Source: Candidatus Parcubacteria bacterium
GTDB taxonomy: Bacteria > Patescibacteriota > Minisyncoccia > Phycocordibacterales > UBA2100
Direction: 5' to 3'
Assembly: GCA_003599175.1 (NCBI GenBank)
Contig: QZIY01000013.1
Location: forward strand, 1-57,289
DNA: 57,289 nt
Shown here: in pieces, positions 6,255-56,580 of the stretch
Layout of the letters: each line of letters opens with the position of its first letter
How positions within the stretch are numbered: position 1 is the stretch's first letter
Position numbers and translations under genes: made by a program
The notes under the pieces: model-generated
The model's database searches: none
What the model was told of the DNA's origin: nothing
What the model saw: the letters and a program-made list of their open reading frames with translations, nothing else

Positions 6255-8465
6255 TTACTTTGCCGCTAATTTGTGCGGATTATGATTTGGACATTGCTTA
6301 TTGCTACAACGCTCGGGGATGGTCTTTGTGCCTTCCATCATGAGAGACCCACACATCGTACAAATCTTACCGGTCGGGCGAGCTTTGATGGTGTTTTTGC
6401 AGTCGGGATAGTTTGAGCACGCGAAGAATGGTCCGAAGCGACCACGCTTTTCTACCATTTCACCCTTGCCGCAGACGGGGCATTGCACGCCGGTCTTTGC
6501 GCGGGCTTCTTCCTCCGGATCTTTTTTCACAAACTTGCACTTGGGGTAGTTGGAGCAGGCGATAAAGCGGCCGAAGCGCCCTTCGCGCTCAATCTGTTTG
6601 CCGTCTTTGCACAGGGGGCACGCTTCGCCGATCTCTTTGGGCGGCGCGATTTCGCTACCGTCTTCTTTGCGAGCGCCGAGACAATTGGGGAACTTTTTGC
6701 ACGACATAAAGCGACCGTTCTTTGACAGCTTGTATTCCATCGGGCCCTTGCAGATGGGGCAGGGGAATTCTTCTGGGGCATCGCCCATTGAGGTGATTTT
6801 CGGGATTTTTTCTTTGCCCTTCACCGCTTTTTTAAACGGCGAGTAGAAATCTTTGAGTGTCTTTTCATATCCGCGCTTGCCCTCGGCGATTTCGTCGAGC
6901 TCGTCTTCCATCTCTGCGGTAAAGGTGTCGGAAATATAGTCACCAAAATTGTTTTCGATAAAGGTGGAGACAACATCGCCCGTTGCGGTCGGGATGAGCG
7001 TGCGACCCTGTTTTTCCACGTAGCCGCGCGTTTCGAGCGTCTGGATGATCGACGCATAAGTGGACGGGCGGCCGATACCACGCTTTTCAAGCTCCTTCAC
7101 GAGCCCTGCTTCCGAATAGCGCGGAGGCGGCTGAGTTTCTTTTTCCTCCGTATGTGCTTCAACGAGCGTAAGCGGATCCTGTGCGACTACCTTTGGCAAC
7201 TCAACATCTTCGCCGCGTGCGCCGGGATCGGCTTTGAGCCAGCCGTCGAAGACGACGCGCGAGCCATTGGCCGCAAAATCGGGAATATTTTTCGTGTCTT
7301 TAGGAAGCGCGGAGATCTTGGTACGCAAAATTTTTGCATCGGTCATCTGACTCGCCACGGCACGCGCACGAATGAGTTCGTACAATTTTTTCTGCTCGTC
7401 ATTATGACCAGCGCTACGTTTTTTGGAGTCGGTCGGGCGGATCGCCTCGTGCGCTTCTTGCGCGCTCTTGGATTTCGTCTTATATACGCGCGGTGAAAGA
7501 TACTGCTCGCCGTATTCGCTCTTTACGACACCGATGATATTGCCCTGCGCTTCTTTGGCGAGATTCGTGGAGTCGGTGCGCATGTAGGTGATGAATCCGC
7601 CTTCGTACAATTTTTGGGCGATGCGCATCGTGCGAGAAGGGGAGAAGCCGAGGCGTGTCGATGCGGCTTGCTGCAAAGTGGAAGTAGTGAAAGGCGCGCG
7701 GGGAGAGCGCGAGGCCTCTGTTTCATCGACGGAGATGACACTCCACTCCTTATTTTGCGCAGCTTCGTAAATGCGCTTCGCCTCTTTTTCATCGCGCGGC
7801 TCTTCAGCACAGATGACGGTAAATTGCTCGCCCCCGCCTCGCGTCGGCTCGCCGTCGCGAGTCGAGGCGGGCTTCTTCGTCTTTATATCCGCAGAAAGCA
7901 CCCAGAATTTTTCCGGGACGAATGCGCGGATCTCGCGCTCCTTTTCCATCAAGATGCGAAGAGCAGGGGATTGCACGCGGCCGGCGGAGAGGCCATAGCG
8001 TACTTTTTTCCAGATGAGGCCGGAGAGATCGTAGCCGAAAAGGCGATCGAGAACGCGGCGCGCTTCCTGTGCCTTTACCAATTCGTCATCAATCTTGCGT
8101 GGATTCGCGAGTGCTTCCTGTACCGCATGCTCGGTGATTTCATGGAAGACGATACGCTTGGGTTTTTTGAGTTTGATCGTTTCGGCCAAGTGCCACGCGA
8201 TCGCTTCGCCCTCGCGATCGGGGTCTGTCGCAAGGATCACTTCATCGGCCTTTTTAGCGTCGCGCTGGAGGCCGTCGATCACGTGCTGCTTGAGCGCAAC
8301 GATTTGATACTTGGGTTTGAAGCCATTTTCGATGTCTACCGCGTCTTTGTTGCTCTTGGGCAAATCACGAATATGCCCGACTGATGCGCGGACGGTGAAC
8401 CCCTTGCCGAGGTATTTTTCGATTGTTTTCGCCTTTGCCGGCGACTCTACGATCACTAATTTCAT
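6255..8465 (-). CDS. topA: DNA topoisomerase I with C-terminal Zn-ribbon repeats
   Basis: 736 aa. TOPRIM start MKLVIVESPAKAKTIEKYLG, ITYMRTDS active-site region, and four CxxC...C..C modules at the C-terminus. Confidence 0.97.
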   Translation of the reverse strand: MKLVIVESPAKAKTIEKYLGKGFTVRASVGHIRDLPKSNKDAVDIENGFKPKYQIVALKQHVIDGLQRDAKKADEVILATDPDREGEAIAWHLAETIKLKKPKRIVFHEITEHAVQEALANPRKIDDELVKAQEARRVLDRLFGYDLSGLIWKKVRYGLSAGRVQSPALRILMEKEREIRAFVPEKFWVLSADIKTKKPASTRDGEPTRGGGEQFTVICAEEPRDEKEAKRIYEAAQNKEWSVISVDETEASRSPRAPFTTSTLQQAASTRLGFSPSRTMRIAQKLYEGGFITYMRTDSTNLAKEAQGNIIGVVKSEYGEQYLSPRVYKTKSKSAQEAHEAIRPTDSKKRSAGHNDEQKKLYELIRARAVASQMTDAKILRTKISALPKDTKNIPDFAANGSRVVFDGWLKADPGARGEDVELPKVVAQDPLTLVEAHTEEKETQPPPRYSEAGLVKELEKRGIGRPSTYASIIQTLETRGYVEKQGRTLIPTATGDVVSTFIENNFGDYISDTFTAEMEDELDEIAEGKRGYEKTLKDFYSPFKKAVKGKEKIPKITSMGDAPEEFPCPICKGPMEYKLSKNGRFMSCKKFPNCLGARKEDGSEIAPPKEIGEACPLCKDGKQIEREGRFGRFIACSNYPKCKFVKKDPEEEARAKTGVQCPVCGKGEMVEKRGRFGPFFACSNYPDCKNTIKARPTGKICTMCGSLMMEGTKTIPERCSNKQCPNHNPHKLAAK

Positions 8466-8564
8466 ATACTATATATAGAAGAGGTTTACACACATTCGCG
8501 CTGAATGCAAAAAAAGTAACGAAACAACCCACGGAACGGATTGTTCCGTAGGCTGCAATCTTCA

Positions 8565-10321
<1,757 letters not shown>

Positions 10322-10567
10322 ATGAGTGCAAATACTTTCCATCTCGTCATTGCATCTGTCGGCGACACCAAATTCGACGCCGCAGCGGAAAGCGCGACGC
10401 TCCCGGGTGTCGACGGCATCATGACTATCCTTCCTCACCACGAACCATTCGTGACGATTCTCAAAAAGGGGAAGGTGAGCGTGAAAGCAAGCGGGGAACA
10501 CAAAGAATTTGATATCGAAGGCGGGGTGCTTGAGTGCAGTGGAAATCGCGCCGTTGTGCTTCTCTAG
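10322..10567 (+). CDS. atpC: F-type ATP synthase epsilon subunit, beta-sandwich domain only (81 aa)
   Basis: Matches the epsilon N-domain pattern (LPGVDGIMTILPHHEPFVTILKKGKV...GGVLEC...VVLL). No C-terminal helical hairpin. Confidence 0.85.
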   Translation: MSANTFHLVIASVGDTKFDAAAESATLPGVDGIMTILPHHEPFVTILKKGKVSVKASGEHKEFDIEGGVLECSGNRAVVLL

Positions 10568-10584
10568 TACGTTACAATAATCGC

Positions 10585-12735
10585 ATGCGCATCATGCGGC
10601 TCTTAGCCGCTCTGGCGGTTTTTTCTATACCGTTTTCTGCTTTTGCAGCCGCTGTTCCTACCGGCGGATCGCCATTTTCGCAGGTGAATCCGTTTTCATT
10701 TATTACTGATTCCTCGCATGCTCCCATAAGTGCTACGATCACTCCTTCTGCGCAAGTCGCCGCAACAGAAGCGACCCAACAAGCAACAAACGTAGGCACG
10801 AGCGACATTTGTTATGACGAAGCGGTTTCTATTAAAGATGGGAAGCAAGTGGCGACCCCATCCAAGGGAAAAAATTTTGATGAGTGCAAAAAACAGAAGA
10901 TTACGAAAGCAGATTGTTCCAACAAAACAAAAGCAGCCCTCGTCGGTAAGACGACCTACACGGTACTTGGCTCTGATAAACCAACGACGATTAGCCGTTG
11001 CGAGAAACAGCCGACTTCCAGCGCGTCAAAATGCGTTGCGATCGGAGACAGTCTTGCACTTGGTGCCGTGAAAGCAGGTTGCAACAGTGGCGGTAGTGTT
11101 TCGAGCAGCGGGTGTGATGTTGCGAAAATGGGACCTTCACTTGATCGGCTTGCATGCGGAAGCCGCAACCCGCAAGGGGTTTTGGATGCTATTAAAAATG
11201 CCAGTCCGGAACAATTGAAAGACGCGACAATTGTGCTTTCTCCGGGATGTTCAAACGGTGCGGCTATGTGTAAAGCGTGCGCCAATGACTCTTCCTGCAT
11301 CATTTCGCAGCAATTGAAGGAGCTTGAAAATAAGGGAGTTGATCTCGCAAACGTAAAAGTGATGGGTGTTTCTGAAACGCACGGCACCGTCAACACGGGA
11401 TACCTTGATGGTGTCAATGGTGGGGTAGGGCAAATAGTTAAAGACACTGGTGCCGAATTCCTCGGGCCCCTTCAGAACGTTGCAGGAGACGGCGTGCATG
11501 CGAATAATTATGGCTGGGTTCTCAACGAGATTGGACCTCCAACAGTTGCTATGCAAAACGGCGATTTCGGGAGCCCATTTACTGAGGGTGCCTCGGTGCA
11601 AACGGCAACCGGACCGGATGCTTCAGGCGTGGCTCAAAACTTGGCGCCGATGTGCGATAGTCTCGGTGGTTGCGGTTCAGCCGCATGTAATGTGCCAAAC
11701 CCAAGTCTGACATGTCGCACGAACAATCCGGGCGCTCTCACTTATGCGCCGTGGCAGGCCAAATACGGCGGTGTCCCATGTGGTATGGACAACAACACAA
11801 CTTGTTTCCCCACTATGGAACAGGGAATTGCCGCTCACGGTGGACTTCTCGTTGGTCCCAAATATTACGGATCTGGTGAGGGCACGATCGGTGACGCTGC
11901 AACGAGGTATTCAACGGCGAATCAATCCCAATATGCATCTTTTGTTTCCAACGCCACTGGTATCGGCGTGAACCAACCCGTGGATCCTTCGAACCCTCAA
12001 CAGCTTGGCAGCATTATGATGGCGCAATCGAGATTTGAGAATGGAAGGGGTGTGATATATACTCCCGAACAATTGGAAGCCGGTCTCGCGCTTATGTACA
12101 GCTCACAAACCACGCCTGTTGGATCAAATATCGTTCCGCTCGGCGGTGTTTCGAGCGGATTGGTGGGCAGCACTGTATCTACTCCCGCATCCTCGGGCAC
12201 TCTGACTGGTGAGTGGTCCGCGAGACAGAGCAGCACGAATGTTGTGACAGCTGAACCATATACACCGCCGACTGTGGTTAAGCCGGACTCTGAGACGAAA
12301 GAATATGTCGTTACGTACAAACCATACGAAAGCTCAAATGGTTGGGGTGGGATGAACTCGATGATGATGGGCAACTCTCTCGGCAGTTCGCTCGGCGGAG
12401 GCCTTTTTGGGTCTTCGTGGTCACAACCTTCGTACTCTAATCAAGGGCAATATCGAAATCCGCCTCCGCCACCGGCGAGCGTTTCGATCACGGCAGCACC
12501 TTCAACGGTCAAAAAAGGTGAGCAGATTGCAGTCAATTGGACATCCGAAGCGACGCTTCTCAATCCGCCATGTCGCGTCACCCAAAACGGCACCATTATT
12601 TCAGAATCTAATGCGGGTAGTCGTACCGTCACGACAAGCAGCTCCACGCCATCCACGCTCACGTTCCTCCTGCAGTGCAAAGCGGCGCGCGATGGGCAGA
12701 CTATCCAGCAGCAGGCAGCGGTCAGCGTGCAATAA
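10585..12735 (+). CDS. large secreted Cys-rich protein with GDSL/SGNH-like motif, Pro-rich linker and Ig-like C-terminus
   Basis: Signal peptide MRIMRLLAALAVFSIPFSAFAAAV. Motifs AIGDSLALG, TNNPGALTYAPW, PPPPPA linker. Function unknown. Confidence 0.7.
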   Translation: MRIMRLLAALAVFSIPFSAFAAAVPTGGSPFSQVNPFSFITDSSHAPISATITPSAQVAATEATQQATNVGTSDICYDEAVSIKDGKQVATPSKGKNFDECKKQKITKADCSNKTKAALVGKTTYTVLGSDKPTTISRCEKQPTSSASKCVAIGDSLALGAVKAGCNSGGSVSSSGCDVAKMGPSLDRLACGSRNPQGVLDAIKNASPEQLKDATIVLSPGCSNGAAMCKACANDSSCIISQQLKELENKGVDLANVKVMGVSETHGTVNTGYLDGVNGGVGQIVKDTGAEFLGPLQNVAGDGVHANNYGWVLNEIGPPTVAMQNGDFGSPFTEGASVQTATGPDASGVAQNLAPMCDSLGGCGSAACNVPNPSLTCRTNNPGALTYAPWQAKYGGVPCGMDNNTTCFPTMEQGIAAHGGLLVGPKYYGSGEGTIGDAATRYSTANQSQYASFVSNATGIGVNQPVDPSNPQQLGSIMMAQSRFENGRGVIYTPEQLEAGLALMYSSQTTPVGSNIVPLGGVSSGLVGSTVSTPASSGTLTGEWSARQSSTNVVTAEPYTPPTVVKPDSETKEYVVTYKPYESSNGWGGMNSMMMGNSLGSSLGGGLFGSSWSQPSYSNQGQYRNPPPPPASVSITAAPSTVKKGEQIAVNWTSEATLLNPPCRVTQNGTIISESNAGSRTVTTSSSTPSTLTFLLQCKAARDGQTIQQQAAVSVQ

Positions 12736-40770: not shown

Positions 40771-42171
40771 CTATTTATCCGACTCTTTTTTTGTCGCGAT
40801 ACCAAGTTCCTTGAGCTGTTTATCGACAAGCGGTTTCGGGGCTTTCATGACTGCCGTCTGACCACCACGGGTCATCGGGAACGCCTGCACTTCACGCAGG
40901 TACGATTCTCCCGTGAGGTTCATCACGTTGCGTTCGATACCAAGCGCGATGCCGCCATGCGGTGGCGCGCCGTATTTGAATGCTTCGAGCATGTGGCCCA
41001 CGCTTGTCTCCGTCTCCTCCGGCGAGTAGCCCATTACCTCGTACGTGGCGCGCAGAATTTCTGGGCGATGCGCACGGATTGAGCCGCCGCCTGTTTCGAA
41101 TCCGTTGCAGACGAGGTCGTACTGCGTGGTCAAAATGTTTGCAATGTCCTCTTTGTTTAAGAGTTTCTCCACGTGCTCTTTGATCGGCATGGAGAACGGA
41201 TTGTGCGTAAAGGTCCAGCCACCCTCGTCGGTTTTTTCGAAGAATGGGAATTTGTAGACCCATGCGTATGCCAAGACACCGCGCGCTTTCTCTTCTTCGG
41301 TGCGAAGATCGAATTTGTCCGCACCAAACTTTTCCATCGCCTCCTGGTAGGTAAATCGCGGGAACGGTTTTTCTTTGATCTCAAAGCCGAGAGACTCTAC
41401 CGTTTCGGTAATCATGCGCTCGATCATGTTCATCACATCCTCCTGCTCCACGAACGACATCTCGATATCTACCTGGCTATGCTCAAAGCCGCGATCGGCA
41501 CGGAGATCTTCGTCGCGCACGCAACGCGCGATTTGGAAGTAGCGCTCAAAGCCGCCGACCATGAGGAGCTGCTTGTACTGCTGTGGTGATTGCGGAAGTG
41601 CGTAGAAGTGGCCCGGGTGGAGGCGTGACGGCACGACGAAATCGCGCGAACCCTCGGGCGTCGATTCGGTGAGAATCGGCGTCTCGATTTCGATGAATTT
41701 ATTTTTAAAGAGGAATTCGCGCACTTTTTGTACAAAGGCGCTTCGCATACGCATATTTTTCTGCATGCGGTCGCTGCGCAAATCGAGATAGCGGTACTTG
41801 AGACGTACCTCCTCCCCTACCCCGGCCGTATCGCTCGAGATGTCGAATGGTACGGGCTCGGATGCATTCAAAATCTCGATCGCTTCGATCTGCAATTCGA
41901 TATCGCCGTTTTGTTTATCGGCCTGGACATTTTTCTCCGGCCGCGCATTGACGAGACCACTCACTTGTACGGCATATTGCTGACGCACATCCTTGGCCAC
42001 ATCCATCGCAGGGCTCTTCGGCAACACGACGCCCTGTACGACGCCGGTCATATCCTTGAAATCGAAGAAAACCATCTTGCCCTGATCGCGACGGACATCT
42101 ACCCAGCCACAAATCGATACTTGCGAGCCAGTGTGTTCTTTCAAATCTCCGATATATACCCGATCTTTCAT
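40771..42171 (-). CDS. aspS: aspartyl-tRNA synthetase, bacterial-type motifs but no GAD insertion (466 aa)
   Basis: OB-fold N-terminus, FQIARCVRDEDLRADR (bacterial AspRS motif 2 region), GGGSIR, and PPHGGIALGIER motif 3. Confidence 0.88.
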   Translation of the reverse strand: MKDRVYIGDLKEHTGSQVSICGWVDVRRDQGKMVFFDFKDMTGVVQGVVLPKSPAMDVAKDVRQQYAVQVSGLVNARPEKNVQADKQNGDIELQIEAIEILNASEPVPFDISSDTAGVGEEVRLKYRYLDLRSDRMQKNMRMRSAFVQKVREFLFKNKFIEIETPILTESTPEGSRDFVVPSRLHPGHFYALPQSPQQYKQLLMVGGFERYFQIARCVRDEDLRADRGFEHSQVDIEMSFVEQEDVMNMIERMITETVESLGFEIKEKPFPRFTYQEAMEKFGADKFDLRTEEEKARGVLAYAWVYKFPFFEKTDEGGWTFTHNPFSMPIKEHVEKLLNKEDIANILTTQYDLVCNGFETGGGSIRAHRPEILRATYEVMGYSPEETETSVGHMLEAFKYGAPPHGGIALGIERNVMNLTGESYLREVQAFPMTRGGQTAVMKAPKPLVDKQLKELGIATKKESDK

Positions 42172-42500: not shown

Positions 42501-43436
42501 TCACAAGGCCACTCCGACCTTCTTTCGGACGTCTGCCATCTTGGCGGCCGCGAGTGTCTTTGCCTTTTCCTTACCTTCTCGAAGAACCGTCTTCACGTCT
42601 TCGTCCGATATATTCGCGCGGCGCTCACGCATCGGGCCGATGACCGATTCAATATCCTCGACAAGCGCATCCTTGAGCGCCTTGTATTTGCCCTTATTTT
42701 CTTTGTAGAGCGATGAGAGCGCCTCGCCTTTCCTAAAGAGTGCATGGATGTTGTACACGTGCTCCGGGCTCTCCCCTTTTGAATCCGTGACGATGCTCAT
42801 CACGGCTTTGGCGATCTCATCTTTGGTTCCAAAAAGCGGGATCGTATTGCCATAGCTCTTGCTCATTTTCTTGCCGTCGGTACCCGGAATCACACCGACG
42901 CTGGTCATAATGTGTTCCTTGGGCTCTATAAACGTCTCGCCATAGGTATTGTTGAATTTTGCTGCTGCCTCGCGTGCGTATTCTATGTGCTGGCGTTGAT
43001 CTTCGCCTACCGGGACGATGACCGTGTCATACAGCAAAATATCCGCCGCCATAAGCATGGGGTATGTCAGAAGTCCGGCATTGGCCTCGAGACCTTTGGC
43101 GATCTTGTCTTTGTAGGCGTGGCCTTGCTGCAAAAATGGCACAGTCACGAGACAATCAAAGATCCATCCCAGCTCAGTATGCTCGGATACATCGGATTGT
43201 TTGAAGATGATGGCCTTATTTGAATCGACACCGGCTGCAAGATAATCGCGTACGGAATTATAGATGCTCCCGCTCACCTTTTTGGGATCCTTAAGGGATG
43301 TAAGTGAGTGATAGTCGGCGACCATCAAGAGGCTTTCGTATTTGGGATACAAATCGAGAAAAGGTTTCAGTGCGCCAAAATAGTTGCCGATATGCAAATC
43401 CCCCGAAGATTGTAATCCTGTCAAAAGTCGCTGCAT
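42501..43436 (-). CDS. trpS: tryptophanyl-tRNA synthetase
   Basis: MQRLLTGLQSSGDLHIGNYFGA (HIGH-type) and KMSKSYGN. Start set at Met 43436. Confidence 0.95.
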   Translation of the reverse strand: MQRLLTGLQSSGDLHIGNYFGALKPFLDLYPKYESLLMVADYHSLTSLKDPKKVSGSIYNSVRDYLAAGVDSNKAIIFKQSDVSEHTELGWIFDCLVTVPFLQQGHAYKDKIAKGLEANAGLLTYPMLMAADILLYDTVIVPVGEDQRQHIEYAREAAAKFNNTYGETFIEPKEHIMTSVGVIPGTDGKKMSKSYGNTIPLFGTKDEIAKAVMSIVTDSKGESPEHVYNIHALFRKGEALSSLYKENKGKYKALKDALVEDIESVIGPMRERRANISDEDVKTVLREGKEKAKTLAAAKMADVRKKVGVAL

Positions 43437-43693: not shown

Positions 43694-43820
43694 TCAAGCC
43701 GTCAAAAGAAATTCCACGATAAATCGTGTACCCTTCCCTGCCCCACTGCTTAATCGCCCCGAAATAGTTGCCGATATGGAGCGCCCCGGAGGGTTGCAAG
43801 CCAGTCAATAACCGTTGCAT
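43694..43820 (-). pseudogene. chimeric fossil: 5' fragment of a second trpS fused out of frame to a histidine-kinase 3' end fragment
   Basis: 43820-43743 encodes MQRLLTGLQPSGALHIGNYFGAIKQW (compare the real TrpRS N-terminus). 43744-43694 encodes, in another frame, GAGKGTRFIVEFLLTA*, matching the end of the HK at 49026 (about 28/31 nt identical over the core). Confidence 0.6.
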
Positions 43821-47166: not shown

Positions 47167-48363
47167 TTAGGCCGCAATGATAGGCATTTGTATGCAGTCT
47201 GGTGCTCCGTGAACTATTTTTTCAGGTCGGCCAGTGATTTTCATCCCTGCAACACCGTCTTTTTGCGCGTACACCGTCAGTCGGAAGTAATACGGTGAAC
47301 GAACTCGCTCATTACCATCGAAGACGATAACATCGAACGGTTTCTGATCGATTTCCTCTTGGATGATCCAGAGTGGTTTTTTAGCGTTGCGCTGTCCCCG
47401 AACGATTCGACTAAACATTTCGCCCTCGTCATATCGCACAATACCCTTGCATCCTGAGGAGCAGGTTGCCTTCAGGATGAAGCGTTTGTGTGTACTTGGC
47501 GGCGTGAAGGTGCATTTTTCGAGTTCCCCAGTGAGAAGAGCGGTTGCCGGTATGAGTCCTTGGAAACTTGGCTGGTTTGCGAAATACGGCAAGAATGCTT
47601 TTGACCCCAAATACGCCTTTGGTGGGTAGACAGCATACGTGTCGCCTTCTGTATATCGACGCAAAAGCTGATCACGTATGGCAGGCGTACGATCCAAATT
47701 CTCTGGGATGCACAGTACTTGTGATATATCCCTCACGCTGACCATGTCACGTTCGCGGAGGGTGTTAATTGAGATACCGCGTTCGCGTAAAAAACGCGAA
47801 AGTACATCATAGGACGTCTCATAATACATCTCCTTCTCGGACACGATGATGTGCCATTTTTCGGCCGCGTTAAGGTACTTTCCGAGCGCGTCAGTAAGTA
47901 TGCGCCCCGGGTGCATACCGGCGAGGAGTGCGATGGAATCCATGAGCGCAATGGTGCCGAGCGCGCGCGGGTTGTACGTGTCAATCTCGAGTACTTGCCA
48001 CCCGCTGTCAATACCATAGGCGAAATCAATCTTCACCATTGGCGGGACATCGTCGCATACGCTTCTGCCTGGCAGTGATAATCCATGTGAGGCAATTTTT
48101 GCCTGACGCAGGAAGAATGCTTCGTCATGCAGCAGACTCTTTTTCTGTCCGAGTACGTGGAGGTTTCGCTCGAGATTCTCAACAGCGGCATAAATGTTAC
48201 TCGCGGTCGCGGTAAGCGCTTCGCTGTCCAACACGAGCGCTGCGGGAGTGAGAGTGCAAGCATGTCGTGTACGTCTTTCAACTGTTTCCCAGTAGCCAGA
48301 ACGAACGAAATGTGCCTGAACATCATCAGGGGCCAAACCCAGGTCGATGACTGAAGGAAGCAT
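47167..48363 (-). CDS. glutathionylspermidine-synthase-like ATP-grasp amide ligase (tentative)
   Basis: MVKIDFAYGIDSGWQVLEIDTYNPRALGT (compare R.DF....g..kllEyNaDtP), YPPKAYLGSKAFLPYF, LKATCSSGCKGIV, WIIQEEI. Called from memory of PF03738-like patterns. Confidence 0.5.
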   Translation of the reverse strand: MLPSVIDLGLAPDDVQAHFVRSGYWETVERRTRHACTLTPAALVLDSEALTATASNIYAAVENLERNLHVLGQKKSLLHDEAFFLRQAKIASHGLSLPGRSVCDDVPPMVKIDFAYGIDSGWQVLEIDTYNPRALGTIALMDSIALLAGMHPGRILTDALGKYLNAAEKWHIIVSEKEMYYETSYDVLSRFLRERGISINTLRERDMVSVRDISQVLCIPENLDRTPAIRDQLLRRYTEGDTYAVYPPKAYLGSKAFLPYFANQPSFQGLIPATALLTGELEKCTFTPPSTHKRFILKATCSSGCKGIVRYDEGEMFSRIVRGQRNAKKPLWIIQEEIDQKPFDVIVFDGNERVRSPYYFRLTVYAQKDGVAGMKITGRPEKIVHGAPDCIQMPIIAA

Positions 48364-49025: not shown

Positions 49026-50672
49026 TTAGGAAAGCGGAAACTGAACGATAAATCGCGTGCCCTTCCCTGCCCCTTCGCTCTCTGCCCAAATTTTGCCGCC
49101 GTGGGCATCGACGATTTGTTTTGCGATGAAAAGGCCGTAGCCGGTCGAATGCACATTGATCTTGATCGAATCCTTGCCATGGCCGCCTTCGGTAAAAAGA
49201 TGCTTCATATCTTCTGGGGTAATGCCGATGCCGGTATCTTCGACGAGCATCTGCGCAAGATCGCCTTGTTTTGAAAGCGTGATGGTGACTGAGCCATGCT
49301 CCGTGTATTTGATCGAGTTGTCGATCACATTGCGAATCACGTGTCGTGCGATTTTATCTTTGTCCCCATTGATCGTGAGAACTTCCGCTGCAGGGTGGAA
49401 CTGGAGCGAGAGTCCACGTGCAGCTGCGGACTCTTGTAAATCATTCACCGACTCTTCGACAGTTTTCCCAAAATCAAAATTTTCTTTTTTATACGCCACC
49501 GTTCCCTTTTTCATATTGGACGCATCCAAAATATCCATGATCGTACTCACGCCCTTGCGTACCTCGGTGAGCGCCATCTGAGCCATGCCCTTCAAATCCT
49601 GCGAGACGTCGCCATAATCACCTTCGACGATCGCGGCAAACCCCGCTTCGCTCTTAGTAAGATACCCCTTCACCTCGTGGCTCATAAAGTGAAGGAGATT
49701 TTCTTGCTGTGCATTGGCAATCTCGAGTTCTCTTGCCTGTTTCTCGATAAGTTCGCGTTGCTTCACTTCTTTTTTTACACTCCGGATGAGGACCAGACCG
49801 ATTGCCCCGGTTAAGACGAGCGTTACTCCGATCAGCACGACGTTGTAAATATTATCGGCAAATGTAAACATCGATGCGATGAGAATAACGAGCGCAATAA
49901 CGAGTGCCTGTGCAGCAAGCATGCCGACGTTGAATGTTTTAAACCGTACAATCAGAGCCGCAATAAATGCCATAAATATGGGCATGCCAAAGAGCCCATA
50001 CAGCTCAATTCGAGAGTCTTTGAAAAGACCGATGTCAATGAGATATGAGGCCAAGAAGACCAAAGTGAAGAACAGGAAGAGGAAGAGTTCAATACCAAGA
50101 CCCATGTATACGATTTGCTTCCGGAAATCCGCTGTTGTCGTGCGATATCGGTGGACCAGGAGTCCAAGGATCCAGATCATGGCTATAGCTCCAAGCGAAA
50201 CGTAGTAGTACTTGTACCAGAATCCTTCGAAGAGGAACGCATCGCAATTTGTGAGATCAAAGCCCGCGACATTCCAGTCGGTCGGCGCAAGCAGGATCAT
50301 GGGGAGCATCAGCGCCAAAAAAACACCCTTGAGTTTTGGTGATACATCTTTTTCATACAGAAAGACATAGATGAAGTAGATGCTGAATATCGAAATCAAA
50401 CTCGAAAGGATGCGCAAGAACGACCAGGAGAAGAGTAGTGAGTCGCTATTCACGTTGGTCCACAGCGTGAGATTGATCGAGCACCAGAGCGAAAAGCTAA
50501 GCGCAATGACCAAAAGAAGTCGGCTCAATAAGAGATGCCTTGCGTTGAGGAATACGAAGAGCCCGACAAGAAGTGCGACGACGATTGCAGGAATATGTGA
50601 GTAGTACAAGAGCTCAGGTACGCCTTCCGCAAAAATAAAGAATGTCGGCTCTGGAAAATATGGACAGATCAT
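49026..50672 (-). CDS. sensor histidine kinase with ~8-TM N-terminal domain; no response regulator nearby
   Basis: H-box HFMSHEVKGYL, N box DNSIKYT, G1 DTGIGI, G2 GYGLFIAK. Confidence 0.9.
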   Translation of the reverse strand: MICPYFPEPTFFIFAEGVPELLYYSHIPAIVVALLVGLFVFLNARHLLLSRLLLVIALSFSLWCSINLTLWTNVNSDSLLFSWSFLRILSSLISIFSIYFIYVFLYEKDVSPKLKGVFLALMLPMILLAPTDWNVAGFDLTNCDAFLFEGFWYKYYYVSLGAIAMIWILGLLVHRYRTTTADFRKQIVYMGLGIELFLFLFFTLVFLASYLIDIGLFKDSRIELYGLFGMPIFMAFIAALIVRFKTFNVGMLAAQALVIALVILIASMFTFADNIYNVVLIGVTLVLTGAIGLVLIRSVKKEVKQRELIEKQARELEIANAQQENLLHFMSHEVKGYLTKSEAGFAAIVEGDYGDVSQDLKGMAQMALTEVRKGVSTIMDILDASNMKKGTVAYKKENFDFGKTVEESVNDLQESAAARGLSLQFHPAAEVLTINGDKDKIARHVIRNVIDNSIKYTEHGSVTITLSKQGDLAQMLVEDTGIGITPEDMKHLFTEGGHGKDSIKINVHSTGYGLFIAKQIVDAHGGKIWAESEGAGKGTRFIVQFPLS

Positions 50673-51115
50673 AGGTGAAGAATGTCCTCTCGAGGTGTAG
50701 TTGTAGCGTCCGTATGTTCAATTGAAGGAGCCTCTGGGATTGTTTCGACCACTCCAAAATTTTCAGCTGTAATGATCTCGCACAATTCGCCATCGATATC
50801 TGGATCGCAATAGAACTTTACGCAGTTGGTGTCATTTGTCGGCAGGCAGTGGTTGATTGACTCGCAGTCGGCGATGTACTTTCCGCACTGCGCGTACACA
50901 TCCGCCGCCGGTTTTTCTATAAGTGCATAATAGTACGTTGAAAGACACTCGTCGTCTTCGCAGCCAATGAAGCAGCTCGATGTTGCGGCATCGCATTCTG
51001 CTTCGTAGGCGACGACGTAATCACGCGCAACCATAAAGCGCGCATAGCCGACTACAACGACGAGAAGAATGAGTGCAACAAGCGAGTACTCGAAAAAATA
51101 TTCGCGAAATTTCAT
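50669..51115 (-). CDS. membrane-anchored Cys-rich extracytoplasmic protein (148 aa)
   Basis: One N-terminal TM helix, then 11 Cys in about 100 aa. Its stop overlaps the HK start (ATGA). Confidence 0.55.
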   Translation of the reverse strand: MKFREYFFEYSLVALILLVVVVGYARFMVARDYVVAYEAECDAATSSCFIGCEDDECLSTYYYALIEKPAADVYAQCGKYIADCESINHCLPTNDTNCVKFYCDPDIDGELCEIITAENFGVVETIPEAPSIEHTDATTTPREDILHL

Positions 51116-51175
51116 ATCGCAGGAGATCGCTCAAGTATAGCAGGAGTAGCCTCGCCAATATGACCACCTGTGCAA

Positions 51176-51706
51176 TCAGTGTGATTTTTTCGACTCGTTG
51201 ATTTTTTCTTCTATGAAATATTGGAAATACCCTTTGTACTTTTCCTGCAAATCGGGCTTCTCCCAGTCCGTGTCGGTAATCGTCTTTCGGCACGACTTCG
51301 TTCCACAGAGACAGGCGAGGCTGTAGGGCTTTGCGTTTTTGGAGCGAAAGAGTGTCATCGCGTAATCGAACGTAACCTCCTCCCCTTTCTGTATACCGCG
51401 CATTGCGACTAGAAAAATCTGACCTTTTATGCCGGCATTTGGGTCGCAGCTGTGGTTGAAGAAATTAATCCCACCGAGCTCCCCCTTCTTCGACGCGCAA
51501 ATCGAGAGATCTTCGGTGACCTGTATACCATTGTCTTGTAAACCCTCTGGTAATTGTTCTTCATCCTCAAGTCTCATCACGTAGCCTGAAAGGACGAGGA
51601 GACGCTCACCCTTTTTAATGTCGGCAACGGCAAACGTGCCGCGGTCATACTTTTCTGTATCCTTGACCTCGAGTTTGGGATTCAGCCAGTAGAATGCGTG
51701 TTGCAT
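51176..51706 (-). CDS. SET-domain (lysine) methyltransferase with post-SET Cys cluster
   Basis: NFFNHSCDPNA, EEVTFDY, CLCGTKSCRK. Start set at Met 51706 to clear the EamA gene. Confidence 0.8.
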   Translation of the reverse strand: MQHAFYWLNPKLEVKDTEKYDRGTFAVADIKKGERLLVLSGYVMRLEDEEQLPEGLQDNGIQVTEDLSICASKKGELGGINFFNHSCDPNAGIKGQIFLVAMRGIQKGEEVTFDYAMTLFRSKNAKPYSLACLCGTKSCRKTITDTDWEKPDLQEKYKGYFQYFIEEKINESKKSH

Positions 51707-51752
51707 AGGGACATGTGGTTGATCGATACTATAGCAAAAACCTACATGAGTA

Positions 51753-52679
51753 TCATATCCCGCCCGAGAGGAAGAGAAGATACGTCCCAAAAATAACAAT
51801 GCTCATAGCAAGTGCTTTCTGTACGAGGTGCTTGAGGTGAATTTTTTCTCTTGTGAAGTTTGGAAAAAAGAGAGTCAAAAAAATGCCTATGGCGAGTACA
51901 AAAATGGGCTGGAACGAGTCAACAAGGAGTATGAGGGAAATCGGGCCCAAAAGGTATGCGAACGAAAAGACTATATTGCCTAAGATATAGAGACCTTCAT
52001 TCAAAAAATTGAGAGACAGAATTGGAGCAGAGTTTGTTCGTAGCGCCGTTAAAAAATGCCGACGGTAAGACGGAATGCATGCAAATAGAAATACACCGAC
52101 GAGCACCAGCGTAAGATGTTCCCAAAAAAGTGATCGCCACACATTTTCCTCAAGCGCGATGTACTTGAAGAGCACCGAGCCAAGAGCCCAGAAGAAGGAG
52201 GCCGCAAGCATGAGCGTCACTGTTTCGCGACGAAGTTTGAAATTGTTCTCCACATCGATTTCAAATGAAATGATCGTCGCGCCCAAAATAATGATTGTCA
52301 TAGCAATAAACTGGAAGTGTGAAATCGTTTCGCTCAAGAGAAAGTAGCCCAGAATCAAGCCAAACACGGGTACAAGTTGGTAAAACACTATGGCAACAGA
52401 GGCCTCTTCCTTCCTAAGCGCGAGGAGATAGCACCACAGCACGGCCACATTGAGAATGCCAACCATCGCGAGCATAAAAACATGCTTTGAACTTACCGTG
52501 AGCGCTTGCGGGTCTGCCCAAAAAATAAACGGCAGAGCGGCGCCAGAAAGAAGCGACGAAAAGAGGACCAGCGTTCCGACACCGCCTTGTTTGAAGTGTT
52601 TATCGAGGAGATGTTTGTCGATGTGATTCGTGAGCGCATAGAGAAAGGGCCCAATGAGCGCAAAGAGAAACCAGCTCAT
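51753..52679 (-). CDS. EamA/DMT-family transporter (10 TM)
   Basis: Two EamA-like halves. Hydrophobic throughout. Confidence 0.85.
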   Translation of the reverse strand: MSWFLFALIGPFLYALTNHIDKHLLDKHFKQGGVGTLVLFSSLLSGAALPFIFWADPQALTVSSKHVFMLAMVGILNVAVLWCYLLALRKEEASVAIVFYQLVPVFGLILGYFLLSETISHFQFIAMTIIILGATIISFEIDVENNFKLRRETVTLMLAASFFWALGSVLFKYIALEENVWRSLFWEHLTLVLVGVFLFACIPSYRRHFLTALRTNSAPILSLNFLNEGLYILGNIVFSFAYLLGPISLILLVDSFQPIFVLAIGIFLTLFFPNFTREKIHLKHLVQKALAMSIVIFGTYLLFLSGGI

Positions 52680-53614
52680 ACAGTGATTTCCCGCTGTGTT
52701 TCAGAAACGATGTATTTCTTGAGAAATTCCGCGGGATGGTATGTACTCTTTGCCTTGCGCAGACCCTCCATATCGAGATCTTGCTCCCAATTCCACAGCT
52801 GCACGTTGTGCTTCAAGAGGTGCTGCGCAATTTTTTCGTTCATAAATTCATATATTCCCTTGTATTCGACATCTCCCTTAACAAAGTGAGAAATTGCGTA
52901 CGGTTTTTGCACAATCTCGTCGATTCCAAATCCAATAATGGCGTCCTTCCAAAAAACGCACGATACGAAAATGTCGCCTCCCCGAGCGAGAGCTTCCGCA
53001 TGGGCAAGAAGTCGAAGAATTGCCGCTTCCTCATGGGCAAGATCGTAGGCGCTGTTACGTGCCTTTTTCCGCTCGCCCCATCTTCGAAAGAGTGTCATCA
53101 GGTGTGGGTGGATGCTCGCATCTGTAATAGGCCGAATCTCAAATCGAGCTTCAGGGTGGAGCTCCGGAAATGTCCGCGCAAGACGATGTTTTACCTTCAG
53201 TCCCGCGTTTTCCGAGTTGGCGAGCTTTTCGATGGCATATACATAATCAAAATTGCGCCTATCTTCCCGCACAGTTAACCCTGATGTTTCGAGTTGTCGT
53301 GCGGACTCCTCCGGCACAAAATGCAGTTCTGGCCTCATCCCGGATGATTTTGCGAACTCCAAAAGCTTGTAAGCGGTATCCGGGCACTCATTCGTACCGA
53401 TAAAAGAAAGAAAGGACTCGCTCGTCACATAATCGGTAAATAAAAGAACGAGGTTGCCATTTAGATCACATATACTCCCCTTTTCCAGGAGATTCCACTC
53501 CCAAAGATTGGTGAAATTGAAATCCGAATACGGCTTGAAACGAACAGTATACGTTCCTACCTCAGCCCTTTGATCGGCCCGTATTTTTTGGAAGTCCGGA
53601 AACGAAGAGATCAT
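52676..53614 (-). CDS. DUF2156-like (MprF C-terminal-type) aminoacyl-tRNA-dependent transferase domain protein
   Basis: FNFTNLWEWN..., DYVY, KHRLARTF, HFVKGDVEYKGIYEF, NWEQDLDMEGLRKAKSTYHP follow the DUF2156 pattern (N.eqDlG..gLr..K.sy.P). Called from memory. Confidence 0.6.
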   Translation of the reverse strand: MISSFPDFQKIRADQRAEVGTYTVRFKPYSDFNFTNLWEWNLLEKGSICDLNGNLVLLFTDYVTSESFLSFIGTNECPDTAYKLLEFAKSSGMRPELHFVPEESARQLETSGLTVREDRRNFDYVYAIEKLANSENAGLKVKHRLARTFPELHPEARFEIRPITDASIHPHLMTLFRRWGERKKARNSAYDLAHEEAAILRLLAHAEALARGGDIFVSCVFWKDAIIGFGIDEIVQKPYAISHFVKGDVEYKGIYEFMNEKIAQHLLKHNVQLWNWEQDLDMEGLRKAKSTYHPAEFLKKYIVSETQREITV

Positions 53615-53666: not shown

Positions 53667-54500
53667 TTATTGTTGCGGCTTGCTTTCCAAGGCAAGAGCC
53701 GCGTCTATTTTTTGCACGTTTTGCGCTACCGCATCATGGAACGTCGCAATCCCCTCGCCCGCGACAGCCGGATCGTTGCCCGGATAGCTGTGGAGCCACT
53801 CTTCCTTGCTGATGTTTTGTACCTGCGCCCATGCTTTTTGGACACGTTCGTGAGCTTTCTCTATGTCCCCTATTTCATAGAGAGCGATTGCGCTCGAGTT
53901 GAGGAGCCATGGATTTTCCGGAAAATGTTTCAGGCCCTCTTCGGTTGCACGAGCAGCTTCTTCGAATCGCTCGTCCTTAAGAAGCACCCACGCATAGTCA
54001 TTGATCGCCGCCCAGTTGTATGGAGCAACTTTCAAAAACTTTTCATAATCTTCCGCCGCGCTCGCATAGTCGCCCATATACCCTTCGATCAATCCCCGCA
54101 CGTAGTATGAATTGGGGGTGTCTTTGCCGTGCTTTTGGATTTGCAGATTGATATGAAAAAGTGCGGTACTAAAATCACCCTTCAAAAACGCGACTCGTGC
54201 CAATTGGTGATGCACATAAAGTAGATTGGGGTCTAACTTGACTGCCTGTTTCAAAAACGTCTCCGCTGCCTGGATATCATAGTGGCGAGGATCTTCTCCA
54301 TCCATATGCTGTGTCCCATATTTGTATGCACGGTCCCCAGACGGATCAATTTTCATCATGAGTCGCTCGTGTGCTATTTGCAACGTGAGCGGCGCCGAAG
54401 TTTGTGTTGTAATGACAGCAAGGATGAATACGATCACGAGACCACCCGTAATCCAGCGCAAATCAATCGAGGAAAAATTTTTCTTGCGCATACTATTCAT
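53667..54500 (-). CDS. TPR-repeat protein with N-terminal membrane anchor
   Basis: TM helix WITGGLVIVFILAVI followed by about 5 TPR-like repeats. Confidence 0.8.
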   Translation of the reverse strand: MNSMRKKNFSSIDLRWITGGLVIVFILAVITTQTSAPLTLQIAHERLMMKIDPSGDRAYKYGTQHMDGEDPRHYDIQAAETFLKQAVKLDPNLLYVHHQLARVAFLKGDFSTALFHINLQIQKHGKDTPNSYYVRGLIEGYMGDYASAAEDYEKFLKVAPYNWAAINDYAWVLLKDERFEEAARATEEGLKHFPENPWLLNSSAIALYEIGDIEKAHERVQKAWAQVQNISKEEWLHSYPGNDPAVAGEGIATFHDAVAQNVQKIDAALALESKPQQ

Positions 54501-54939
54501 TTACCTGCGTCCTCGCGTTTTCAATAGGCAGACCTTCTATCATCCAATTGCGCAACCCTCCCTCAATACGCCGCAAATTGAGAAAGCCTTGATGCTCGAG
54601 GTAGCCGTACGCAACGCCGGAGAGGCTGCCTCCCGTGCAAATGAGTACAATCGTCTTCCCTTTTTTTGGAAGTTCTCCATGTCGCTCAAAAAGTTTCTGG
54701 ATAGGAATATTAACTGAGCCTTGGGCGTGATTTTCTTCGTAATCCGCGACTTGGCGTACATCGATAAACAGATAGTTGTCGGGGTTTGCGCGGTAGTCTG
54801 TCCAGAATTCCACCGGATCGATGTCATTCGTCACTGGCTGGATGATATTCAAATTTTTGAGTGGCGTCAGATAGATCGCAAGCACGGTAACAACTATCGA
54901 TGCTATCGTCGGACCAACAATGACGTATGTATTTTTCAT
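54493..54939 (-). CDS. membrane-anchored rhodanese-domain protein
   Basis: Rhodanese layout with active-site loop LICTGGSLSG. Confidence 0.8.
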   Translation of the reverse strand: MKNTYVIVGPTIASIVVTVLAIYLTPLKNLNIIQPVTNDIDPVEFWTDYRANPDNYLFIDVRQVADYEENHAQGSVNIPIQKLFERHGELPKKGKTIVLICTGGSLSGVAYGYLEHQGFLNLRRIEGGLRNWMIEGLPIENARTQVNE

Positions 54940-54951
54940 GCAAACAGTGTA

Positions 54952-56580
54952 CTACACGTTTTCTTCCTTGTGCGGAGCCTTGTATTTCGAATATCTACCG
55001 GGCGACATAATATTGTCCGGATCCAACGCTTTTTTAATTTTCTCCGCCGTCTGCCAAAACGGATGATCCATATCCACGACCATATCCATCGCCGACGTAG
55101 GTGCGCGATACACATAAATACCCTTTTCTTTACACTTCACAAATAACTCCCGATAGCATGCATGCGCCCGCCTCGTCTCTTCTGGATCGTTTTTGTCAAA
55201 AAGTATCGGCAATGACATTCGAAGACATCGATCGGAAAAATTATTAAATGAAATCAGCGGTTCTATAGCATGTGTTGCGCAAATTTTTTCAGAAATCCTT
55301 ATTGCCTCTTCGACATAACTGCGAGAAATCGGTAAAACAATTGAGAAGAAGATTAACCCAGCATGTATATCGCGATCGTAGTCATTGTTTTCTACATTCG
55401 ACAGAAGTCGACCGCGTTTCCAAAAAGGCAACCTTGGTTTTTTAAAAGGCAGCATGCCAGAGCTAACTCTCAAGTAAGATCTCAATACAATTAGAAACAA
55501 AAATCGCTGACGGATTTTGGCAGGCAATTTCCTACAAAAAAACTCCATCCAACGAATTTTTTTATCATGTGCGAACATTATTTTTTGTGAGAACAATCGT
55601 CGCAATGATGTATGGGCCGCTTCCACAACTGGCCTCTCACCCTGCAATGTCCCGAGTATGATCCATCCGTCAAGTGAATGCAGTTTCAAAGCTTTTGTAA
55701 CAGAAGCGGGATCGAGAACGCCATTGTCAAGCACGTCTGCTTTAGAATATTCCTTTAGACGTGAGAAAGTGGTTGTAGGGCTTTGAATTCTAATACTTGT
55801 CAGAGTTGATCCAAGTGCAAAAAAAGCTTTTTGAATCAATGGAATAATTTTACAAAATTCTTCATATCTCTTGATACGTATCATGAAAACCTCCGTTCTT
55901 TCTGGAATTGGAGCAAGAGAAATTGTCATACGCGTTACGATCCCGAATCCACTTTCTCCAAATAAACCGTCAATATATGGTCCAACACCCCATCTAAAGA
56001 ATCCTCCTGTCGTCGATTCGTCTGCGAATGCAGAACGGTACACTGATCCATCTGCTAAAACCGCTTCAATATGCATGATGGTTGAAAACCGATCAATAAT
56101 GGCAGATGCACCATTACCTCTATCAAGGGCATTGCCGACAATGCTGACATTCGGTCCGGCGATCGACACAGGCGGCATATAAGGAGCGGAATTGCTAATC
56201 AAATAATCATGTAATTGCTTCGCTGTCACTCCTGGCTCAATGGTAATCAAACCTGAGTCAACGTCCATGTGTACAATCTTATTCATTTTTGAAAGATCAA
56301 GGACGATACAGGAGTCATCTGAAGGTACACGACTCCCATAGCCCCAATTATTGCCAATGCTTATTGGATACAGCGGAATTCTTTGCTTGGCGGCAATTTT
56401 TACAATCGCCGCGACTTCATAAGCATTCAAAGGGAAAGCGACGCCAATTATCTTCCTTTTTTTTGAACTGAGGGTTGAGGTTGTATATTTCTCTAATTTT
56501 TCTTGCGCCGTGAAAACTCTCTCGGTGCCCAAGGCGATCGCCAACTCTTCCAGTGCTTGCCGTCTCCTATCTGTAAGCAT
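54952..56580 (-). CDS. FAD-binding (PCMH/FAD_binding_4) oxidoreductase
   Basis: N-terminal FAD-binding module (VAFPLNAYEVAAIVKIAAKQRIPLYPISIGNNWGYG) and C-terminal ALDPDNIMSPGRY. Confidence 0.85.
   Translation of the reverse strand: MLTDRRRQALEELAIALGTERVFTAQEKLEKYTTSTLSSKKRKIIGVAFPLNAYEVAAIVKIAAKQRIPLYPISIGNNWGYGSRVPSDDSCIVLDLSKMNKIVHMDVDSGLITIEPGVTAKQLHDYLISNSAPYMPPVSIAGPNVSIVGNALDRGNGASAIIDRFSTIMHIEAVLADGSVYRSAFADESTTGGFFRWGVGPYIDGLFGESGFGIVTRMTISLAPIPERTEVFMIRIKRYEEFCKIIPLIQKAFFALGSTLTSIRIQSPTTTFSRLKEYSKADVLDNGVLDPASVTKALKLHSLDGWIILGTLQGERPVVEAAHTSLRRLFSQKIMFAHDKKIRWMEFFCRKLPAKIRQRFLFLIVLRSYLRVSSGMLPFKKPRLPFWKRGRLLSNVENNDYDRDIHAGLIFFSIVLPISRSYVEEAIRISEKICATHAIEPLISFNNFSDRCLRMSLPILFDKNDPEETRRAHACYRELFVKCKEKGIYVYRAPTSAMDMVVDMDHPFWQTAEKIKKALDPDNIMSPGRYSKYKAPHKEENV

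Follow-up and report, generated by a model that had tools for sequence, protein, structure and literature searches.

A DUF2156-EamA gene pair with an optional SET-domain methyltransferase in a recurrent cassette of ultra-small (CPR) bacteria

What could a SET-domain methyltransferase, an EamA-family exporter and a DUF2156-type aminoacyl-tRNA transferase make together when their genes are packed into one block? A sequence-only reading had proposed that such a block could aminoacylate a lipid or small molecule and export it. We analyzed the locus in the window, the whole stretch of 57,289 nt. The three open reading frames, their coordinates and their tight spacing were confirmed on the minus strand. 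The DUF2156 (LPG_synthase_C) gene, 52676-53614, encodes a freestanding protein of 312 aa, and its ATG start is supported because homologs align from residue 1. The start of the EamA/DMT-family gene, 51753-52679, lies over the DUF2156 stop in a 4-nt ATGA overlap at 52676-52679 (letters gtATGAgc); its product is a polytopic permease of 308 aa. The SET gene, 51176-51706, follows after 46 nt, starts with ATG and encodes a methyltransferase of 176 aa with a post-SET Cys3 motif; a further 60 nt separate it from the next gene. All three domain assignments held in a Pfam search: PF09924 for the DUF2156 protein (81 bits against a cut-off of 27.5, 1e-22, profile positions 41-297), PF00892 for the permease (57 bits, 3e-15) and PF00856 for the SET protein (50 bits against a cut-off of 22.4, 3.5e-13).

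All three genes are genuine, and CPR bacteria carry them together repeatedly, but the block had been drawn too small: two further minus-strand genes belong to the same conserved cassette. The first, 50669-51115, encodes an acidic, Cys-rich protein of 148 aa with 10 Cys and one N-terminal TM segment, and had no match in Pfam or NCBIfam. The second, 49026-50672, encodes a histidine kinase of 548 aa (HATPase_c, 6e-26) with a polytopic N-terminal region whose many hydrophobic segments span residues 18-296. The Cys-rich gene lies directly upstream of the kinase gene, again with an ATGA overlap that places the kinase start on the Cys-rich stop, and is a conserved partner of the kinase. The neighborhood survey covered 80 species-level DUF2156-related loci, with proximity defined as lying within three genes. 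By this measure, the kinase was close to DUF2156 in 51 of the 80 loci; homologs of the Cys-rich protein occurred in 27, and in 26 of these they were close to DUF2156. In relatives, the kinase gene is followed by those for TrpRS and AspRS. No receiver-domain gene was found among the neighboring genes scanned with Pfam and NCBIfam, such a gene being adjacent only in distant relatives. A blastp comparison of the kinase's N-terminal membrane region with c3, a separate membrane protein of 277 aa found at distant loci, yielded nothing significant (E 0.32). The Cys-rich membrane protein and the multi-TM kinase may constitute a sensor that accompanies the module in Paceibacteria-like genomes.

Upstream genes for an FAD-oxidase, a rhodanese and a TPR protein were considered as module parts and rejected: homologs of the TPR protein and FAD-oxidase occurred in 0/80 loci and the rhodanese had one weak match. 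A 398-aa open reading frame at 47167-48363 had no match in Pfam, NCBIfam or PDB sequences and was set aside. Promoter and terminator counts between 48 and 57.3 kb did not exceed those in shuffled sequences; the only signal in the promoter scan was a weak extended -10-like site directly upstream of the SET gene.

The DUF2156 protein was evaluated by hydropathy, structure prediction and conservation. Its gene is the only one of the PF09924 type in the source genome. It contains zero hydrophobic segments, carries no fused membrane domain of the kind found in MprF, and aligns over its entire length with the soluble protein 2hqy, which a PDB sequence search retrieved at 1e-13 and a profile search at 3e-35. 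In Foldseek, the AF2 model (pLDDT 91.9) matched 2hqy best (TM 0.83), followed by the C-domains of MprF (~0.64), FemX (0.59) and Sbb17/Sba18 (0.53-0.56). The probability was 1.00 for 2hqy, the MprF C-domains and FemX, indicating two tandem GNAT subdomains in the model. These are joined by a helix, residues 137-152, in which positions 138, 140, 142, 143 and 148 are Lys or Arg in 18 to 29 of 30 sequences and position 151 in 17 of 30. No sequence has an acidic residue at 140, 142, 143 or 148, and only 3/30 do at 138 and 151. Tandem GNAT domains and a basic helix are the defining features of aminoacyl-tRNA transferases (PMC7334510, PMC8913301). The earlier description of a soluble DUF2156 protein was borne out, and its fold is that of aminoacyl-tRNA transferases. 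The family to which it belongs comprises 609 representative clusters at E<=1e-30, nearly all of ~300 aa and almost always freestanding, and is found mostly in CPR/Patescibacteria. Two longer members (P0272 and P0307), considered as possible Rosetta stones, were discarded as their extensions are Pro/Ser/Arg-rich low-complexity tails that hold no domain.

On the basis of the fold and helix, we infer that the DUF2156 enzyme would transfer an amino acid from charged tRNA to an acceptor, with the inter-domain basic helix holding the tRNA. A GNAT enzyme that uses acyl-CoA, such as a polyamine N-acetyl or N-acyl transferase whose acylated product is exported by EamA, appears very improbable. The tandem GNAT fold would suit such an enzyme, as would the polyamine context described below. 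In addition, acetyl-CoA enzymes are among the lower Foldseek matches, and at one locus (L109) the slot upstream of EamA-SET-Cys-rich-kinase holds a 179-aa open reading frame that looks by eye like a single GNAT, with no Pfam match. Against this, a conserved, positively charged helix between the GNAT halves is the tRNA-binding hallmark of tRNA-using enzymes (PMC8913301), and the best structural matches of assigned function, MprF, FemX and Sbb17/Sba18, all depend on aminoacyl-tRNA.

The permease has ~10 hydrophobic segments spanning its full length, of which Pfam recognizes the first repeat only (residues 2-138), and it matches TIGR00950 (carboxylate/amino acid/amine transporter) weakly. Its homologs are of ~305 aa and receive the same Pfam call. 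The proposal that DUF2156 is paired with EamA rather than with a flippase domain gained strong support, as an EamA gene adjoins DUF2156 in 44 of the 80 loci, in either order. Indeed, DUF2156 and EamA are the conserved core of the cassette. When polytopic membrane proteins of any kind were counted, one adjoined DUF2156 in 61/80 loci. The permease was also considered as an obligatory importer of SAM feeding the SET enzyme; the presence of MetK makes such a role unnecessary.

The neighborhood survey bears on the acceptor. Genes of polyamine type lay within three genes of DUF2156 in 36 of the 80 loci, encoding AdoMet_dc-type proteins (16), PvlArgDC (16) and agmatinase (4). At one further level of association, an AdoMet_dc domain is fused to DUF2156 (P0111, at locus L178); the fusion gene is followed by EamA, a 208-aa open reading frame and SET, with no kinase. 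CPR homologs of SpeD have been shown to be arginine or ornithine decarboxylases (PMC10407285). Counting against an amine acceptor, neither an AdoMet_dc nor a PvlArgDC gene turned up in the source genome, which is 88% complete; it has only an arginase-family gene, on another contig. Searches of the literature on DUF2156 with CPR or with decarboxylases found nothing relevant, and no paper linking parts of the cassette. The polyamine genes, including the fusion, are the strongest additional association, so an amine acceptor is at least as well indicated as a lipid.

To our knowledge, every characterized PF09924 enzyme acts on a lipid, which counts against an amine acceptor and favors a split analog of MprF. 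In such an analog, DUF2156 would work at the inner leaflet and aminoacylate phosphatidylglycerol, a glycolipid or a similar membrane lipid obtained by scavenging. EamA would be the flippase, a function that in MprF resides in the N-terminal domain, the kinase would sense envelope charge and SET would be unrelated to the chemistry. The fungal protein ErgS shows that a soluble, freestanding DUF2156 can modify a lipid with no membrane domain (PMC8913301), in structure the MprF C-domains rank second to 2hqy as matches, and the frequent adjacency of a polytopic membrane protein fits as well. We nevertheless consider the split analog unlikely. The PDB sequence profile search reached 2hqy only and not MprF, which places the DUF2156 protein in a separate subfamily, and a search of the 88%-complete genome turned up no CDP-alcohol phosphatidyltransferase. 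Moreover, the analog leaves unexplained the decarboxylase fusion, the 36 loci with polyamine genes and the recurrent methyltransferases.

The SET protein carries the full signature attributed to it: NHSCDPN at N84-N90, FDY at 113-115 and the post-SET motif CLCGTKSCR at C132-R140. Residues N84, H85, C87, Y115, C132, C134 and C139 are invariant in 31 homologs. It has no hydrophobic segment, and its AF2 model has a pLDDT of 92.9. The nearest solved relatives in sequence and fold are MLL1, ASH1L and NSD, the alignment to MLL1 and ASH1L running through the post-SET region; MLL1 is the top PDB sequence match (1.6e-17) among the best 60 of 115. SET proteins had been described as uncommon in bacteria, but they are not rare in the source's class, in which 84 of 301 genomes carry one.

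The distribution of SET beside DUF2156 is patchy. SET falls inside the three-gene range in 7/80 loci (~10%) and is missing in the closest relative (L176). On the DUF2156 tree, where its occurrences do not cluster, it requires at least 7 gains or losses. In the class sample of 301 genomes, DUF2156 and SET lie less than 4 kb apart in 5 of the 8 genomes having both; among the 12 genomes with both in a phylum-wide sample, the window is the one case of adjacency. None of 80 metagenomic loci with more distant SET homologs contained DUF2156. Co-occurrence of the three genes therefore stands in part: the trio recurs elsewhere (L172, L173, L020, L011/L014, G255 and L178), but SET is facultative. The sequence-only reading had named two findings that would count against it, lack of profile support for DUF2156 and trio genes that never co-occur elsewhere; given the profile match and the recurring trio, neither was obtained. 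SET is an optional add-on to the cassette, in which its homologs of at least 70% identity occupy the corresponding position.

This pattern could also reflect synteny with no shared chemistry. The locus would then be a variable slot upstream of the kinase in Paceibacteria in which accessory genes collect, SET a protein-lysine methyltransferase that spreads horizontally and acts on a target of its own, such as a nucleoid protein, a host protein or the kinase, and DUF2156 and EamA might each act alone. Consistent with this, the flanks are constant (GrpE-DnaK-DnaJ at one end, kinase-TrpRS-AspRS at the opposite end) and the middle varies. Between cassettes, SET keeps an identity of 71-76%, against 30-60% for the other genes. 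Many SET homologs lie directly upstream of the kinase with no DUF2156, and the protein resembles a canonical MLL-type protein lysine methyltransferase. The number of changes and the lack of clustering on the DUF2156 tree point the same way. On these sequence comparisons, SET may be mobile and serve a separate target.

As an account of the whole cassette, synteny alone seems doubtful. The DUF2156-EamA adjacency is kept despite flips in gene order and includes the 4-nt overlap, and the decarboxylase-DUF2156 fusion also argues against it. Further, the trio or DUF2156 with SET recurs away from the kinase and flanks (L178, L073 and L063). At least three SET subtypes occur beside this DUF2156 family, sometimes with class-I N-methyltransferases, in at least six arrangements, at least two of which have no kinase. 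For example, the gene order is SET-EamA-DUF in G255, DUF-SET-SET-TM-PrmA/PRMT-like methyltransferase in L073 (60% GC), SET-class I methyltransferase-DUF in L069 and SET-DUF in L063. At related SET loci there are additional genes of amine pathways, encoding a deoxyhypusine-synthase homolog, PurD-like ATP-grasp ligases and PrmA-like methyltransferases; these favor the preferred reading given below.

Overall, the probable role of the cassette is to make and transport a cationic amine or lipid in modified form, by chemistry not yet described for the DUF2156 family. The original proposal of an aminoacylated lipid or small molecule that is exported thus survives in its transferase fold and conserved EamA pairing, but the context points at least equally to an amine. 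Our preferred reading, to which we give a little less than an even chance, is a tRNA-dependent aminoacyl transferase whose acceptor is a polyamine-type amine or a lipid, served by a permease of its own and, at some loci, by N-methylation. DUF2156 and EamA would be the translationally coupled core of a modular CPR locus. If this reading is correct, the acceptor would most likely come from the polyamine pathway, as a small cationic amine of the agmatine or putrescine kind or some related diamine. Less probable is a membrane lipid like those used by MprF and ErgS, and an acceptor of another type is a little less probable still. EamA would move the substrate or product through the membrane, flipping it if it is a lipid. 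Where present, SET could provide optional tailoring by N-methylating the product's free amino group, which is plausible because a lysyl or aminobutyl group resembles the lysine side chain.

A more specific version is, in our estimation, improbable: that this family contains the first aminoacyl-tRNA transferases of the Pfam lineage to act on polyamine-type amines, yielding conjugates like aminoacyl-agmatine or aminoacyl-putrescine. SET and class-I methyltransferases would N-methylate the product, SET being the first to act on a polyamine or aminoacyl-amine, and EamA would export a cationic surface or host-directed compound under the control of the sensor kinase.

CPR/Patescibacteria are unable to synthesize most lipids and live attached to hosts. 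For a large DUF2156 family with no assigned function, the neighborhood pattern of EamA, decarboxylases or agmatinase, N-methyltransferases and kinase suggests a concrete and inexpensive set of candidate substrates. With a polyamine-type amine as acceptor, tRNA-dependent aminoacylation would reach a class of small molecules new to it, and SET enzymes would gain a second class of non-protein substrate after that of BurB. With a lipid as acceptor, the cassette would amount to an MprF divided between two proteins in membrane-scavenging bacteria. Either acceptor bears on how the charged CPR cell surface is shaped.

Among known systems, MprF and other aminoacyl-phosphatidylglycerol synthases (PDB 4v34, 4v36, 5vrv, 6lv0 and 7duw) share with the window protein the Pfam family, tandem GNAT domains, basic helix and a membrane-translocation partner. 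They differ in that the window protein has no fused membrane domain, is 11-14% identical and has a DMT/EamA partner in place of the MprF flippase domain; its family's context is one of polyamine genes, sensor kinase and methyltransferases. The closest solved relative, 2HQY from Bacteroides thetaiotaomicron, is likewise a freestanding DUF2156 protein of ~300 aa, but it is 22% identical and, as a structural genomics target whose function is also unassigned, permits no functional transfer. ErgS, the ergosteryl-3beta-O-glycine synthase, is similarly a soluble DUF2156 protein with no membrane or aaRS domain and is tRNA-dependent via its basic helix, but it is eukaryotic, uses a sterol acceptor and has no reported transporter, methyltransferase or decarboxylase partners (PMC8913301).

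The pyruvoyl-dependent Arg/Orn decarboxylases derived from AdoMetDC (SpeDA/SpeDC), described in CPR, and PvlArgDC flank or are fused to DUF2156 in relatives of the window locus, whereas the clusters reported for SpeDA/SpeDC comprise speY, hss and speE with no link to DUF2156, EamA or SET (PMC10407285). MLL1/KMT2A, ASH1L and NSD resemble the window SET protein in the NHSC motif, catalytic Tyr and post-SET Cys3, but the latter is a single domain with a family-specific C-terminal helix, DW..LQKKY.GYFQYY. BurB methylates free methionine and is thereby an example of a SET enzyme with a small-molecule substrate (PMC12542666); it is a mid-rank fold match to the window protein and is absent among the best 60 of 115 PDB sequence matches. 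Finally, the streptothricin-type peptide synthases Sbb17/Sba18 (PDB 9wqw-9wqy) and FemX belong to another Pfam lineage, match less well in structure than MprF and serve antibiotic or cell-wall pathways. Like the enzyme proposed here, they are tandem-GNAT aminoacyl-tRNA transferases, and they acylate the amino group of a non-lipid substrate; the Sbb17/Sba18 structures, relatives with a bound amine substrate, provide a small-molecule precedent.

The block comprises five genes, all read from the minus strand (49026-53614), of a 0.92 Mb genome in 40 contigs that is 88% complete: DUF2156 (52676-53614), EamA (51753-52679), SET (51176-51706), a 148-aa Cys-rich protein (10 Cys, a single TM segment; 50669-51115), and a 548-aa histidine kinase whose N-terminal half is polytopic (49026-50672; Pfam HATPase_c). 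Pfam agreed with the three domain calls of the sequence-only reading, at 81 bits for DUF2156 (LPG_synthase_C), 57 bits for EamA and 50 bits for SET. The SET motifs named in that reading were likewise present, with key residues invariant among 31 homologues. The start codons used for DUF2156 and SET were the ATGs at which homologue alignments begin. The DUF2156 stop and EamA start overlap in an ATGA, and DUF2156 is translationally coupled to EamA. Spacers of 46 and 60 nt separate EamA from SET and SET from the next gene, respectively.

The neighbourhood of DUF2156 was evaluated in 80 loci from a scan using one genome per species, in which ORFs were clustered and then mapped. The contigs of these loci carry labels such as Paceibacteria, Nomurabacteria and Kaiserbacteria, which places the window genome in the CPR/Patescibacteria. 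A polytopic membrane protein gene lies directly next to DUF2156 in 61 loci, and EamA does so, in either order, in 44. Within three genes of DUF2156 are a histidine kinase (51/80) and the Cys-rich protein (26/80); 33 loci have a 277-aa membrane protein, in most cases accompanied by a 92-aa protein beside the kinase. Polyamine-pathway genes also recur within this distance: an AdoMet_dc-type pyruvoyl decarboxylase in 16 loci, PvlArgDC in 16 and an arginase-family (agmatinase-like) gene in four, with at least one of the three in 36. Experiments have identified CPR homologues of SpeD as arginine or ornithine decarboxylases (PMC10407285). At locus L178 (34% GC, no kinase) the AdoMet_dc-type decarboxylase and DUF2156 domains are fused in a single protein, P0111, and the gene order is fusion-EamA-208 aa-SET.

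Upstream of DUF2156, the window carries genes for a FAD-linked oxidase, a membrane-anchored rhodanese and a TPR protein (53667-56580) that are peculiar to the region as it stands in this genome: the oxidase and TPR genes have counterparts in none of the 80 related loci and the rhodanese has one weak match. Relatives have the cassette flanked by GrpE-DnaK-DnaJ on one side and TrpRS-AspRS on the other, with trpS directly after the kinase. In the window, TrpRS (42504-43433) and AspRS (40876-42162) are separated from the kinase by an insertion of approximately 5.5 kb that holds, among others, HAD, a DapF-like gene and a 398-aa ORF. Approximately 310 nt upstream of intact trpS, at 43743-43817, 25 codons duplicate the TrpRS N-terminus, with 76% identity to the TrpRS of a relative.

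The association of SET with DUF2156 is real but facultative, and involves particular SET subtypes. In its favour, both domains occur in eight genomes of the class sample, lying within 4 kb in five of these, in about four independent lineages; counting against it, in the phylum-wide sample both occur in 12 genomes and are adjacent only in the window. The SETs of the other phylum-sample genomes appear to be mostly of the short type, as judged by ORF length alone (mostly 130-200 aa). In G255, a genome of the same order as the window, a SET of a different subtype (29-32% identical) lies upstream of EamA-DUF2156. Locus L073 (60% GC, labelled Rhodocyclaceae) has neither EamA nor kinase; two SETs that differ in subtype come after its DUF2156, and then a membrane protein gene and a PrmA/PRMT-like methyltransferase. 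SET is upstream of DUF2156 in L063 and, together with a class-I methyltransferase, in L069. Of the tight three-gene block described from sequence, the trio itself recurs (G255, L178), but SET is optional: seven of the 80 loci have it within three genes of DUF2156, and it is missing between EamA and the Cys-rich gene in L176, the closest relative of the window cassette (75% identity for DUF2156, 80% for EamA, 75% for the kinase). In L176 (3019-4082), EamA is read in two parts covering residues 1-179 and 191-304; a frameshift, decay to a pseudogene or an error of assembly could account for this.

On the DUF2156 tree, the SET label requires at least seven changes and clusters no more strongly than shuffled labels. 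In cassettes with the window-type SET, this protein is 71-76% identical to that of the window, far above DUF2156 (39-48%) and the kinase (30-55%); SET therefore either moves between cassettes or is under much stronger constraint than the genes around it. Every close SET homologue examined occupies the same slot, immediately upstream of either the Cys-rich gene or the kinase. Among 80 metagenomic loci of more distant SET homologues (37-54% identity), none contained DUF2156; SET directly upstream of the kinase was recurrent, as were EamA, AdoMet_dc, PvlArgDC or agmatinase, a deoxyhypusine-synthase homologue, PurD-like ATP-grasp ligases and PrmA-like methyltransferases. SET domains had been considered uncommon in bacteria; in this class they are common (84/301 genomes).

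Several related loci were also noted. The window genome has a second, short SET of 138 aa (contig 21, 13957-14262, plus strand; L083/L091), which resembles the generic SETs of 28% of class genomes and has no DUF2156 nearby. In L173 (GCA_041389045.1, JAWKSQ010000003.1; 5072-9652), a decayed cassette with DUF2156, EamA and kinase in fragments, SET is intact and 73% identical to that of the window. In L126 (239-4656), TrpRS comes after a row made up of an AdoMet_dc-type decarboxylase, a homologue of deoxyhypusine synthase on the opposite strand, a membrane protein of 176 aa, SET and kinase, such that a polyamine (homospermidine-type) gene pair directly adjoins the SET-kinase pair. PurD-like ATP-grasp enzymes join a carboxylate to an amine; their genes (GARS_A + GARS_C) recur beside SET/EamA or divergent DUF2156 genes in L109 (3282-4583), L105 (116-1528), L095 (4662-5969) and L086 (12287-13594). 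In L086 (G049), this gene follows two Cys-rich proteins of approximately 550 aa with hydrophobic N-termini and two tandem divergent DUF2156 paralogues (7176-12265), with a long SET 3.8 kb upstream. In L085 (G162) and L087 (G284), from another family of the class, three genes lie next to one another: a longer, 260-aa SET, one resembling glutamate racemase (Asp_Glu_race) and a divergent DUF2156 of ~330-350 aa.

The DUF2156 protein has no hydrophobic segments and belongs to a family of 609 representative clusters (E ≤ 1e-30), nearly all members being approximately 300 aa. Its alignment with 2HQY, a functionally uncharacterised protein of 305 aa, spanned the whole length (1e-13 as a single sequence, 3e-35 as a profile); the profile search of PDB sequences did not reach MprF. 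A confident AlphaFold model (pLDDT 91.9) matched 2HQY with a TM of 0.83, the C-terminal domains of MprF with ~0.64, FemX with 0.59 and the aminoacyl-tRNA-dependent peptide synthases Sbb17/Sba18 with 0.53-0.56. The tRNA-using DUF2156 fold consists of two GNAT halves and an intervening, positively charged helix essential for activity (PMC7334510, PMC8913301). At six positions of the corresponding helix here (residues 137-152), K/R is found in 17 to 29 of the 30 family members compared.

A literature search found no paper tying DUF2156 to CPR, polyamine decarboxylases, EamA or SET, and the cassette carries a concrete, if putative, biochemical prediction. We infer that the DUF2156 enzyme would use aminoacyl-tRNA. 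The acceptor would be an amine from the neighbouring decarboxylase or agmatinase, or one scavenged in the window genome, in which, at 88% completeness, neither an AdoMet_dc-type decarboxylase nor PvlArgDC was found and only an arginase-family gene, away from the block, was present. EamA may move the substrate or product. A lipid acceptor is a serious alternative, because every characterised member of the DUF2156 family uses lipids and ErgS is lipid-active as a soluble protein (PMC8913301); the window genome, 88% complete, yielded no CDP-alcohol phosphatidyltransferase. SET is predicted to methylate the free amino group of the product. MetK is present in the genome. Among solved structures, SET is closest to protein lysine methyltransferases; BurB is a bacterial SET enzyme that methylates a free amino acid (PMC12542666).
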